DNA of 64,000 nucleotides from a virus (Duplodnaviria; Caudoviricetes), in the IMG/VR virus record IMGVR_UViG_3300020042_012680, positions 1-64,000 of that record; one strand, written 5' to 3'. The position numbers were made by a program, and so were the translations under genes. The notes under the pieces were generated by a model. It was not told the origin of the DNA. It saw only the letters and a list, made by a program, of their open reading frames with translations, and did not search any database. Of the stretch, positions 1 through 5,372 are shown one piece after another; position 1 is the first letter of the stretch, and each line of letters starts with the position of its first letter.

Positions 1-107
1 ATCACTTCTTGCGCCAGGATCGAATTGCCCAATGAAACTATAATCATATTCTCTATCTTTTAATAAGAGATCGGAATTTCCATTAAATTTAAATATTTCT
101 CCTAAAG
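1..107 (-). other. Inverted internal segment of the exostosin-like glycosyltransferase gene
   Basis: Reverse complement reads (T)LGEIFKFNGNSDLLLKDREYDYSFIGQFDPGARSD, open to the window edge, with no start codon (in-frame TAA about 7 codons upstream). RxYDxSFxGQ is the motif expected just before the + strand part at 108-502. Confidence 0.75.
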
Positions 108-502
108 TAAATAAATTAAATAATAATTATAAAAAAAATATTATTTTTTATGATGGATGGAATAAAGGTATTGGTTCAGAAGAATACTCAAGAGTATTGT
201 CCAACACAAAAATAGCATTGGTTCCAAGAGGTTCTGCGAGTTTAGATACTTTTAGATTTTACGAAGCCATGAGATGTGGGTGTATAGTTTTGACTTTAAT
301 ACAAAATGAATATGAATTTATGATAAATAGCCCTCACTTTGAAATAGGATCATGGTCTAACCTACAATTATATTTAGATAATATATTAAACAATGAAAAT
401 ATTCAAGAGCTATCGAACAAAACCAAGGAATTTTGGGAAAATAATTTAAGCTCAAAAGCTGCAGCAGGTTTTATCTTAAAGAAAATAAATAATAAAATTT
501 GA
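108..502 (+). CDS. Exostosin/GT47-like glycosyltransferase, 3' part (gene interrupted by the inversion)
   Basis: The frame of track ORF 197..502 is open upstream: NKLNNNYKKNIIFYDGWNKGIGSEEYSRVLSNTKIALVPRGSASLDTFRFYEAMRCGCIV, matching the exostosin SxxxLxPxG...RxxEAxxxGCxP signature. The TTG at 197 is probably not the true start. Confidence 0.7.
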
Positions 503-527
503 TATTTATATAAATTAAATATATAAT
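499..527 (+). promoter_or_regulatory. sigma70-type promoter of gmd
   Basis: TTGATA(499-504)-17 nt-TATAAT(522-527); the -35 box overlaps the upstream TGA stop. Confidence 0.7.
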
Positions 528-547
528 ACCTAAAACAATTTTATAAA

Positions 548-1693
548 ATGAATAAAAACATCAAAGAAACTTATTATGGTAAAAAAATAGATACATCCAA
601 TATTTTAAATATTGAAGACGCAAGTAAATTAATTAATGGTAAAAAAACCATAGTAGTGACTGGAGTTACTGGACAAGATGGAAGTCATATGGTAGATTTT
701 TTACTTAAAAATACAGATTACATTATCTTCGGTGGAGTAAGAAGATTAAGCGTTTACAATCACGAAAACATTAGACATATTAAATCTGATAGATTTTATC
801 TTATTAATTTCGATTTAACTGATTCTCATGCTATCGCTAGAACTGTAGAAAAATTACAACCAGATTATTTTATTAATTTCGCTGCACAAAGTTTTGTTGC
901 AAGTAGTTGGGATTTCTCCAAACAAACCTGGCACACAAATTCAACGGCAGTTTTAGATATTCTTGAAGCAATTAGATTATACAAACCATCTTGCAGATTA
1001 TATCAAGCTGGCTCTAGCGAAGAGTTTGGAAACGTAGAGTATTCTCCACAAGATGAAAGCCATCCTTTAAAACCAAGAAGTCCTTATGGTGCAAGCAAAG
1101 CCGCTTCTAGACAGTTGGTAAAAGTTTACAGAGAATCTTATGGGATATATGCAATTCAAGGTTGGCTATTTAATCACGAGGGTACAAGAAGAGGAGAAGA
1201 ATTTGTCACCAGAAAGATTAGTAAAAATGTAGCTCGCATTTATAATGCAATTAAAAATAACGAAGACTTCCAACCACTTGAGTTAGGGAATATTGAAGCT
1301 AAACGAGACTGGAGTGATGCAGAAGATTTTATAGAAGGTGTTTGGATGATGTTAAATCAAGATAAATATAATCCAAATTACTCTGGAGAACCTAAAGAAT
1401 ATATATTCTCTTCAAATGAAACTCATACTATTAAAGAATTTGCTGAAAAAGCTTTTAAATATGCATCAATAAATGGCGAATGGATTGGAGAAGGTGAACA
1501 TATCATATTCATAAATAAAGACAAAAAAGTATTACTTCAAATTAATTCAAAATTCTATAGACCAGCAGAAGTAGAGCTTTTGCTTGGAGATTCTAATAAA
1601 GCCAGACAAGAATTAAATTGGAAACCTAAAATTTCATTTGACAAACTTATAGAAAAGATGGTAAAGTGGGATATTGAAAATCTCAAATCATAA
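548..1693 (+). CDS. gmd: GDP-mannose 4,6-dehydratase
   Basis: TGVTGQDGS NAD-binding motif, AAQSFV, SSEEFG, SPYGASK (YxxxK), FNHE, FVTRKI, LGN..AKRDW, FYRPAEV. Confidence 0.97.
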   Translation: MNKNIKETYYGKKIDTSNILNIEDASKLINGKKTIVVTGVTGQDGSHMVDFLLKNTDYIIFGGVRRLSVYNHENIRHIKSDRFYLINFDLTDSHAIARTVEKLQPDYFINFAAQSFVASSWDFSKQTWHTNSTAVLDILEAIRLYKPSCRLYQAGSSEEFGNVEYSPQDESHPLKPRSPYGASKAASRQLVKVYRESYGIYAIQGWLFNHEGTRRGEEFVTRKISKNVARIYNAIKNNEDFQPLELGNIEAKRDWSDAEDFIEGVWMMLNQDKYNPNYSGEPKEYIFSSNETHTIKEFAEKAFKYASINGEWIGEGEHIIFINKDKKVLLQINSKFYRPAEVELLLGDSNKARQELNWKPKISFDKLIEKMVKWDIENLKS

Positions 1694-2018
1694 ACTTTGT
1701 CAATTAATAGTTAAGAAATTTATTAAAGGAAATATTAATTGGCCAAGAGAGATCAAAATTGCTCAAAGATTATCTAAAAGATTTAATTCTTTTGATTTTT
1801 GGGATAATCTCAAAGAGCTAGGAAGCCCGCCTCCTTCACTAGCTTGGTTTCTCAAGCCACAAGGCAAAGCTTTCATATTAAAGGAATATGAAAGCTTCAA
1901 TTTAAATTTAAATAAAGAAAAAGTAAAATTACAAAAAAATAAAGTAAATGAAGATAAAAACATTTGCAAAAAACCTAAAACTCTGCTAGAATTTATAAGA
2001 TATGGGAAGAAAACCTAA
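1674..2018 (+). CDS. Hypothetical protein
   Basis: 114 aa ORF overlapping both neighbours in operon fashion. Confidence 0.7.
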   Translation: MKISNHKLCQLIVKKFIKGNINWPREIKIAQRLSKRFNSFDFWDNLKELGSPPPSLAWFLKPQGKAFILKEYESFNLNLNKEKVKLQKNKVNEDKNICKKPKTLLEFIRYGKKT

Positions 2019-3144
2019 AGAAGAAATCGAACAACCATCTGGTCCAAGCGCATCAGATAGATTACTATCCTTTTTGAAGGATAATAAAGAGGACCATTAT
2101 AATTTCGAAGACGAAGTTCATTATAAAGTATCAACTGGTAGTTTAAACCTGGATATCGCTACAAGTGGTGGTTTATGCCCAGGTTTGCATAGATTTATTG
2201 GCATGAACGAAGGTGGAAAAACTTCAGAAGCACTTGAAGTCACAAAGAACTTTCTTAAAACAATAGACAATTCTAGAGCCTTGCTCTTCAAAGCAGAAGG
2301 AAGATTAAGCAAAGAGATTAAAGATCGTTCTGGTATTAAATTTGTAACTGATCCAAAAGAATGGGTTGATGGAACTTGCTTCGTATTTGAATGCAATATT
2401 TTTGAAACAGTTTCAGAATTAATGAAAGATCTTATTCAATCAAATGACGAAGATAAGAGATATATATTTATTCTTGATTCGGTTGACGGATTAATGACTA
2501 AAGGTGATTCTCAAAAAAGTATGACAGAAGCCACCAAGGTTGCAGGAGGCGCAGTTATCTCATCAATGTTGATGAAGAAAATTTCGCTAGCACTTTCTAA
2601 GCGTGGTCATATGGCTATCTTTATCAGTCAAGTGAGATCTGATATTAAACTTGACCCCTATGCTGCCAATAAAGATATTCGTCAAACGACTGCTACTGGC
2701 GGAAATGCGTTGTTGCATTTTGCTAATTGGATTCTCGAATTTGAACCAAAGTTTAATAAAGATCTTATTCTTGAAAAACCAAATGATAAATATGATCCAG
2801 TTAAGAACAAAATTATTGGACATAATGTTAAAATTGTAATTAAAAAGTCCACAAATGAATCTACGAATTCTAAAGTTCAATATCCAATCAAGTATGGGCG
2901 TAAAGATGGCTCATCAGTTTGGAGAGAGTATGAAGTTATTGATCAAATTCTTTCTTGGGAATTTGCAACCGCAAAAGGAGCATGGGTTACTTTCTCAGAT
3001 GACATTATCGAAGAACTTAAAAATGCTAATTTAGAACTAAAGAAACAACATCAAGGAATTGATAATCTAAGAGTCTATCTAGAAGAAAATAAACCAATCG
3101 TAGATTATTTTTATAATAAATTTATTAAAACTCTTGCGTCATGA
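2002..3144 (+). CDS. recA: RecA/UvsX-like recombinase
   Basis: VSTGSLNLDIATSGG, Walker A GMNEGGKTS, Walker B FILDSV, IFISQVR, TGGNALLHFA. Confidence 0.92.
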   Translation: MGRKPKEEIEQPSGPSASDRLLSFLKDNKEDHYNFEDEVHYKVSTGSLNLDIATSGGLCPGLHRFIGMNEGGKTSEALEVTKNFLKTIDNSRALLFKAEGRLSKEIKDRSGIKFVTDPKEWVDGTCFVFECNIFETVSELMKDLIQSNDEDKRYIFILDSVDGLMTKGDSQKSMTEATKVAGGAVISSMLMKKISLALSKRGHMAIFISQVRSDIKLDPYAANKDIRQTTATGGNALLHFANWILEFEPKFNKDLILEKPNDKYDPVKNKIIGHNVKIVIKKSTNESTNSKVQYPIKYGRKDGSSVWREYEVIDQILSWEFATAKGAWVTFSDDIIEELKNANLELKKQHQGIDNLRVYLEENKPIVDYFYNKFIKTLAS

Positions 3145-3560
3145 GATTATTAAATATTAACGGCAAACTCGTTAATAAGAACGTAAGAAATTATCTTGTA
3201 GATTGGGATGGAAAATGTAGAAGTAAACTCCAATTTAGATTCAAGCAATTTTTCTATCCTTACTGGAAAAATCATATTGTATACGAAGAGTTTCCAGTTT
3301 ATGGAAGTATGCTTAAAGTAGATTTATTAAATGCAACTAAAAAGATAGCAGTTGAGATACAAGGTAATCAACATGAGAGCTTTAATAAGTTCTTTCATGA
3401 TAATTCTAGATTAAAATATCTTCAAAGCATAAAAAGAGATGTTAAAAAAGAAAGATGGTTAGAAACGAATGGTTTTAAGTTTCTAGAACTCTATGAAAAT
3501 GACCTAAGAAATTTATCACCACAATATATAGAAGAAAAATGTGGCGTACTTATTATTTAA
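3141..3560 (+). CDS. Vsr/DUF559-like PD-(D/E)xK endonuclease
   Basis: VDLL...IAVEIQGNQH...RDVKKERWLETNGFKFLELY pattern. Confidence 0.75.
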   Translation: MRLLNINGKLVNKNVRNYLVDWDGKCRSKLQFRFKQFFYPYWKNHIVYEEFPVYGSMLKVDLLNATKKIAVEIQGNQHESFNKFFHDNSRLKYLQSIKRDVKKERWLETNGFKFLELYENDLRNLSPQYIEEKCGVLII

Positions 3561-3848: not shown

Positions 3849-3851
3849 AAC

Positions 3852-3880
3852 TTGACTTTTGATTTTTAGTTTGGTATTAT
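3852..3880 (+). promoter_or_regulatory. sigma70-type promoter of helicase operon (probably leaderless)
   Basis: TTGACT-17-TATTAT; ATG 7 nt after the -10 box. Confidence 0.7.
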
Positions 3881-3887
3881 ATATTGA

Positions 3888-5372
3888 ATGATTTACTCCC
3901 TACAAGTAGAACGACATGTACTTAGTGGTTTGTTAAAATATCAAGATCTATTCGCTGATATTGATGTTTTCTTATCAGAAAATGACTTTTTTAATGATGT
4001 TCATTCTACTATTTATTCAGTATTTAAGAATATCAAATACAAGGGTGAAAATGTAGATAAAGTCTTATTAGCAGAAAAGATAAAAAATTTAGGAATATCC
4101 TTTAAAGATGAAATTAATATTTTTGATTATATAGATAATTTAACCTTTTCTCAGATCACAGAAGAAGCTACCATGACAGCTTGCAAGGAATTGATTAAAT
4201 TTAGAGTTCGAAGAGAACTTTGCCAAACAGCAGATAATCTTAAAGAGTATGTGACTAAAAATGCAGAAGATTCATTAGACGAGATTATTGGTAAGATAGA
4301 CGGCATATATAATAAAAAAATATCATCTTATTCAGAGAACGACGTACCAATTAATATCTTTGAAGGAGTAGAAGACCTTATTGAAGAAAGGGGCAACTCT
4401 CCTAAAGATGAAACTGGACTTATTACGCCCTATTCAGAATTTAACAGAATGTATGGTGGTTTAAAGAATGGCAATATTTACGCTATAGCTAGTAGACCTG
4501 GCCAAGGAAAATCGACTTGGCTTAATGATATTTGCTTTAAAACTGCTATTAATCCAAAGAACAAAACAAAAACTTTAATTTTAGATACTGAGATGCAGAC
4601 CGTGGATATTCAATTAAGAATGGTAGCATCTTTGAGCGGAGTACCAGTTTGGTATCTTGAAACTGGTAACTGGCGTAAAAATGAAGAAATGACAAAGAAA
4701 GTAAGAGAAGCTTGGAGCAAGGTAAAGAAATATGAATACTTTCATTATCATGTTGGCAACAAAAATATCGATCAAATTTGTTCTATTATCCGCAGATGGT
4801 ATCTTTCAAAGGTCGGTAGAGGAAATCAAGCTATGATTGCTTATGATTATATAAAATTAACTGGAGAAAAGGTTGGTCAAAACTGGGCAGAGCATCAAGC
4901 TATTGGAGATAAAATCGATAAACTTAAAAGAATATCAGAAGAAATTCAATGCCCAGTTATTACCGCAATGCAATTGAATAGAACTGGAGAAAGTTTCAAC
5001 AGAAAAGGCGCAGAAGTAATTGATGACAGTTCAGTTATTTCTTTGTCAGATAGACTTCAATGGTTCGCTTCTTTTGTAGCGATCTTTAGAAGAAAAACTC
5101 TAGATGAGCTTGGTTTAGATGGCCAAGCCTTTGGTACTCATAAACTGATACCAACAAAAACTAGATTTCAAGGTAAAGATGCAGCAGGGCATCAAGATTT
5201 AGTGAGAAGACTAGATTGCACTGGAAAAGAAGTATGGGCGCAGAATTATTTAAATTATAATGTTCAAAATTTTAATATAGAAGAAAGAGGATCATTAATT
5301 GATGTCGCTGAAAGACAAAGAGAGCAATATGAATTAAATGATGCAAATGCAAATGATGGAGAACTATTATGA
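3888..5372 (+). CDS. dnaB: Replicative DNA helicase, DnaB family
   Basis: N-terminal ERHVLSGLL, Walker A ASRPGQGKST, LDTEM, IAYDYIKL, AMQLNR; no intein. Confidence 0.95.
   Translation: MIYSLQVERHVLSGLLKYQDLFADIDVFLSENDFFNDVHSTIYSVFKNIKYKGENVDKVLLAEKIKNLGISFKDEINIFDYIDNLTFSQITEEATMTACKELIKFRVRRELCQTADNLKEYVTKNAEDSLDEIIGKIDGIYNKKISSYSENDVPINIFEGVEDLIEERGNSPKDETGLITPYSEFNRMYGGLKNGNIYAIASRPGQGKSTWLNDICFKTAINPKNKTKTLILDTEMQTVDIQLRMVASLSGVPVWYLETGNWRKNEEMTKKVREAWSKVKKYEYFHYHVGNKNIDQICSIIRRWYLSKVGRGNQAMIAYDYIKLTGEKVGQNWAEHQAIGDKIDKLKRISEEIQCPVITAMQLNRTGESFNRKGAEVIDDSSVISLSDRLQWFASFVAIFRRKTLDELGLDGQAFGTHKLIPTKTRFQGKDAAGHQDLVRRLDCTGKEVWAQNYLNYNVQNFNIEERGSLIDVAERQREQYELNDANANDGELL

Follow-up and report, generated by a model that had tools for sequence, protein, structure and literature searches.

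It has been described that the chimeras which form during MDA arise when displaced 3′ ends re-prime on nearby strands. Inverted chimeras with an intervening deletion were the dominant class among them (85% of chimeras) and close segments were favoured as partners, while complementarity of at least 2 bp was found in 93.5% of the inverted joins of less than 10 kb (Lasken & Stockwell 2007, PMC1855051). Short inversions within genes may also be genuine. Intragenic invertons that introduce premature stop codons exist in bacteria, and site-specific inversion, that of intragenic invertons included, requires two inverted repeats (Chanin et al., doi 10.1101/2023.03.11.532203).

The left end of the phage contig described here bears a likeness to both systems. 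It shares with the MDA chimeras the inverted and offset joining of two nearby segments (the A'C form), the ends so joined being 117 nt apart, and a junction with at least 2 bp of complementarity (AAG, probably AAAG). It differs from the MDA data in that it is known from a contig alone, and ordinary library preparation or events in vivo give the same signature. It is also unlike fold-back (mirror-duplication) artefacts, as the flipped piece is the upstream neighbour of the sequence that it adjoins and is present once: chimeras at contig ends are not necessarily palindromic, and one that consists of the flipped, otherwise missing, upstream neighbour mimics an inversion. With the bacterial invertons the locus has in common an apparent short inversion lying wholly inside a coding sequence, the premature stop codon that it would create and a glycan-related gene, but it differs from them in the lack of flanking inverted repeats and of an invertase in the sequence searched, in that one junction is seen, and in its location in a phage genome. 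In all likelihood the flipped piece arose as an artefact of sequencing or assembly rather than as a genetic switch; our preferred reading, with a probability of roughly 0.8, is that of an inverted chimera formed by template switching of a polymerase and kept by the assembler at the contig end.

Contig end and flipped piece

The stretch studied (the window, 64,000 nt) comprises bases 1-64000 of a linear IMG/VR virus record of 74,247 nt, for which CheckV estimates a completeness of ~49%. Base 1 of the window is base 1 of the contig, with no upstream sequence in the record. The features relevant to the analysis are the following:

1..107, minus strand: flipped glycosyltransferase fragment at the contig tip (terminal 107 nt), encoding residues 105-139 of the intact protein (274/275 aa)
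41..43, plus strand: TAA stop codon in the plus frame, within the flipped piece; the gene as written has no usable 5′ part
104..107, no strand assigned: putative chimeric junction with microhomology, from alignments on both strands
107..502, plus strand: C-terminal 131 codons and stop codon of an exostosin-like GT-B glycosyltransferase, residues 144-274, in normal orientation
548..1693, plus strand: GDP-mannose 4,6-dehydratase gene (PF16363, E 2e-102), for context only

Translation of window 1-105 in the minus frame gives LGEIFKFNGNSDLLLKDREYDYSFIGQFDPGARSD, a 35-residue open stretch on the reverse complement (LGEIF...REYDYSFIGQFDPGARSD). This frame remains open back to ~128 and holds no ATG, GTG or TTG, in agreement with the initial annotation, which had read the piece as lacking a start codon. 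On the plus strand, the downstream gene's frame runs without interruption from 44 to its stop codon at 500-502, and the earliest start-type codon in it is a TTG at 197. The reading of this frame that had been given from ~108 onward (...KIALVPRG...RFYEAMRCGC) was reproduced on translation, where it is preceded by VNKLNNNYKKN. Window 1-107 (minus strand) and window 107-502 (plus strand) are consecutive pieces of one gene of ~275 aa that lie on opposite strands. The usual short read is 150 nt in length, and the flipped piece, at 107 nt, is shorter.

Two other structures that may be expected at the end of a linear phage sequence were considered and rejected. Circular permutation was dismissed as the N-terminal 100 codons of the gene occur nowhere else in the contig. 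A hairpin telomere or simple fold-back duplication was likewise set aside: the contig contains no sequence of which window 1-107 is the reverse complement, and a self-match was found at neither end. The right end of the contig has no anomaly comparable to that at the left end, so that nothing points to a systematic fault of the assembly.

The intact gene in relatives and in the same genotype

The plus-strand piece matched 18 IMG/VR loci, and in all 18 of these the gene is a single intact ORF, of ~270-290 aa, on one strand. The motif R-x-YD...GQ(F/Y)DP, which in the window falls in the flipped piece, is found at each of these loci on the same strand as VP-x-GSAS...FRF-x-EA and a few tens of residues ahead of it. 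This is the order and spacing that the initial annotation had given for exostosin-like genes, and the comparison with homologous phage genes that it had proposed thus bears out its view that the two pieces belong to one gene once bases 1-107 are flipped. The closest relative, with 92% nucleotide identity, is IMGVR_UViG_3300032225_002310 (hereafter L003). Its gene (L003:3539-4366) is an intact single ORF encoding 275 aa, in which the sequences on both sides of the break are continuous (...PLGEIF...GARSD-FYPE-VNKLNNNYKK...).

A search of 5.8 billion proteins led to a 90% cluster of 26 sequences, one member of which (P0057, 274 aa) is encoded on three other contigs, the longest of these being 53,996 nt. 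Residues 105-139 of P0057 are identical to the flipped piece (35/35) and residues 144-274 to the plus-strand piece (131/131), in normal order. P0057 agrees with the window at every residue at which the window differs from L003, and also in a C-terminus that is shorter by one residue. Since both pieces are present at 100% identity and in normal order in P0057, an intact arrangement exists for the window's own genotype.

The flipped state was absent from the 18 relatives and from the 15 members listed of the 26-member 90% protein cluster, and a search with the exact 28-nt junction returned no match among the other IMG/VR viral contigs of a collection from which records very close to the window's genome may be missing. 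A 33-nt stretch from within the segment matched the record of L003 only among viral contigs and had no match in metagenome contigs. Among metagenome contigs no relative of the intact protein was identified, and the protein was without a match among GenBank phages.

The glycosyltransferase

Pfam matches of the protein (RXYLT1_C, Exostosin_GT47 and Glyco_trans_1_2) are all below threshold. PF03016 scores 17.7-18.5 bits against a cut-off of 33.4, the gathering score for assignment to GT47/exostosin, with a best E value among nine relatives of 1.6e-4; the best E value for RXYLT1_C is 8.6e-7, and Glyco_trans_1_2 has a similar score. A PDB profile search gave Exostosin-1 (E 0.003). The intact L003 protein, when modelled with AlphaFold from an alignment of nine sequences (mean pLDDT 87.5), has a predicted GT-B fold, and the model and its Foldseek matches are both in keeping with the GT47 fold. 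The top PDB matches are human EXT1/EXT2 (7uqy, 7sch) and EXTL3 (7au2, 8og1), with E values of 3e-8 to 1e-6 and TM scores of 0.5-0.6, followed by A075L of chlorovirus PBCV-1, a 280-aa xylosyltransferase (8asa, 8avq; E 1e-6). The label of exostosin-like that had been given from the motifs alone is therefore appropriate at the level of fold, EXT1/EXT2, EXTL3 and A075L being the best PDB matches of the model.

Like members of GT47, A075L included, the L003 protein carries the motifs R-x-YD...G-Q-x-D-P and VP-x-G-S...F-R-F-x-E-A, but unlike GT47/exostosin proteins recognized by Pfam, the sequence similarity of the phage protein lies under the threshold. From the model, it appears to represent a compact viral family of exostosin-like GT-B enzymes that is not yet annotated. 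The flipped stretch corresponds to residues 104-142. It takes in eight residues that are invariant (L105, R122, G130, Q131, D133, P134, R137 and F140), as well as the beta-strand with which the C-terminal Rossmann domain begins (124-131).

The family (~275 aa; L003:3539-4366, window 107-502) is widespread in uncultivated phage contigs, with 42 clusters identified at E <= 1e-20. Its members are annotated in their sources as 'hypothetical protein' or are unnamed.

Geometry of the junction

Blastn analysis placed window 1-107 on the minus strand of L003 at 3955-3849 (101/107 identical; E 6e-46, extended alignment) and the window from 105/108 onward on the plus strand from 3966/3969 onward (92% identity). 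The order in the contig is thus the reverse complement of L003 3955..3849 followed by L003 from 3966, and the ends that are joined lie 117 nt (39 codons) apart within the intact gene. The breakpoint falls at 104-107|108, consistent with the break at 107/108 that had been proposed initially.

The AAG at window 105-107 fits either segment and constitutes a 3-nt microhomology. The linker between the two pieces is FYPK in P0057 versus FYPE in L003; if the lysine codon of FYPK is AAA, the homology at the junction would probably be AAAG in the window's genotype, and with this codon CC also matches two bases further on (6/7). Ten nucleotides, L003 3956-3965, are not represented in the contig. For a full inversion of 3849-3965, the left junction would fall ~10 nt past the contig end. 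Six of the 107 nucleotides of the flipped piece differ from L003, and all six differences are synonymous in the sense frame. This shows that the flipped piece evolved within a working gene and speaks against an inactivating inversion of long standing.

The DNA at the breakpoints folds less stably than its shuffled counterparts (z = +1.6), and neither a hairpin nor a quasi-palindrome was predicted there.

Origin of the flipped piece

The sequence of events that is proposed for the chimera begins with a nascent minus strand that would end at the position matching L003 3849. Its 3′ end (...CCTAAAG) could then re-anneal to a few complementary bases (AAG/AAAG, L003 3966-3968) on a strand with the same polarity, at a distance of 117 nt. 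Extension from the re-annealed end would join the reverse complement of 3955..3849 to the sequence from 3966 onward. One or a few chimeric reads would suffice to supply the last 104-107 nt of the contig, the true path of the gene not having been followed at this point, probably due to a coverage gap or to strain variation in the variable glycan cluster. The origin is probably artefactual and may lie in amplification, in library preparation or in the assembly itself.

A chimera is favoured by the position of the piece at the very tip of the contig, by its length of less than one read, by a junction with microhomology only, without inverted repeats beyond chance and without an invertase in the sequence searched, and by the intact gene of the same genotype elsewhere. 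It is further supported by the absence of the junction from other IMG/VR contigs, by the intact gene in 18/18 relatives and by differences that are synonymous only. Against it stands the expectation that an assembler would clip such a tip where the true path is well covered, so that some cause has to be supposed for the loss of this path, and the right contig end offers no parallel anomaly. Judged from the contig only, a sample containing both orientations would look identical, with the same extra edge in the assembly graph. Since a mixed population and a chimeric read both add this edge, only the reciprocal left junction separates one from the other.

As an artefact, the flipped piece matters for curation only. 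Trimming of the first ~104-107 nt of the contig is advisable, and the gene is best annotated as a 5′-truncated partial copy of an intact exostosin-like glycosyltransferase of ~274 aa rather than as a pseudogene or a switch.

Next in order is a real but unprogrammed inversion, which is judged unlikely. Some 117 nt (39 codons) would have been flipped in a minority variant or in a mutant of recent origin, through a template switch during replication or through illegitimate recombination at 4-7 nt of inverted microhomology; the glycosyltransferase would have been inactivated, and the mixture would have broken the assembly. The microhomology at the breakpoints is equally usable by a template switch in vivo, and a mixed population would cause the contig to break next to the segment, but just a single junction is visible, less than a read length from the tip, and 10 nt of the segment are missing. 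Purely synonymous differences are consistent with a very recent event, and the glycan cluster does vary among relatives (a methyltransferase is present in L003 and absent here). Set against this, three other contigs carry the gene intact in the same genotype, no other contig carries the junction, and intragenic inversions that are short and lack repeats are rare in comparison with chimeric reads at the ends of contigs. As regards an inversion that has become fixed, the substitutions and the intact P0057 both speak against it, and it offers no reason for the contig to end ~10 nt short of the second junction.

A programmed, reversible intragenic inverton is very improbable. Here a recombinase would flip the 117-nt segment to turn the gene OFF through the premature TAA and back ON, and a phage-directed glycan would thereby become phase-variable. 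Phase variation commonly affects genes for surface glycans, the 117-nt segment has a length divisible by three, and the ON form is present in other assemblies (P0057); bacterial intragenic invertons with premature stop codons provide a precedent. The inverted repeats at the boundaries are, on the other hand, no better than chance. Their best local score within +/-20 nt of both boundaries in the intact L003 gene is 14, compared with 11.6 +/- 2.5 for 5000 random pairs of sites 117 nt apart in this genome, 21% of which reach 14 (p ~0.21), so that in place of the flanking inverted repeats of an inverton the breakpoints have only 3-4 nt of microhomology. Resolvases and tyrosine recombinases (PF00239 and PF00589) gave no hit at E <= 1 in the 74-kb contig and the 82-kb relative, a weak negative for phage-encoded enzymes that covers ~110 kb of a phage genome estimated at ~150 kb (the records are ~49% and ~54% complete by CheckV). 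Furthermore, 0/18 relatives and 0/15 listed cluster members have the flipped state, and the flip removes a core beta-strand together with the eight invariant residues.

A variant of this reading dispenses with long inverted repeats and relies on a host recombinase, an unseen phage recombinase or template switching for an inversion that is both real and reversible; it is given very little credence. If true, it would be the first intragenic inverton in a phage glycan gene, through which the phage population could hedge between making and not making the glycan modification, and no evidence found points there.

A separate complete divergent gene on the minus strand, with no rearrangement, has the open minus frame alone to its credit and is refuted, as this frame is without a start codon and its 35 residues correspond to positions 105-139 of the very protein that continues, with residues 144-274, on the plus strand. 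Of the three origins offered by the initial annotation, the assembly or amplification chimera is the one retained, whereas the fixed inactivating inversion is disfavoured and the phase-variable ON/OFF switch gained no positive support, the inverted repeats and the invertase that had been suggested as signs of it having been sought as above without success.

Glycan cluster and phage context

The gene next to the glycosyltransferase encodes the GDP-mannose 4,6-dehydratase (gmd), which identifies the region as a phage glycan cluster. An additional gene is present in L003 between these two (L003:4406-5104), encoding a SAM-dependent methyltransferase of 232 aa (Methyltransf_11, E 3e-7). This gene is absent from the window, where only ~45 nt (503-547) separate the glycosyltransferase gene from gmd, and the difference is a gene-sized indel within the cluster. 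Directly upstream of the intact glycosyltransferase gene, L003 encodes a 524-aa protein (L003:1932-3506) consisting of two tandem halves that resemble sugar-phosphate nucleotidyltransferases, the N-terminal half being of the NTP_transf_3/NTP_transferase type and the C-terminal half IspD-like. The phage of the window presumably possesses this gene too, just past the contig end.

Comparison of window 1-3200 with ~50,000 GenBank phage records gave no nucleotide matches. The DnaB-like helicase (window 3888-5372) reaches an identity of only ~26%, to Bacillus siphoviruses, and by these comparisons the phage is remote from all cultured isolates. A gene for a RecA-family protein of 380 aa (window 2002-3144; PF00154, E 3e-11) is located between gmd and the helicase gene. 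It is preceded by an ORF of 114 aa (1674-2018) that overlaps the ends of both neighbouring genes.
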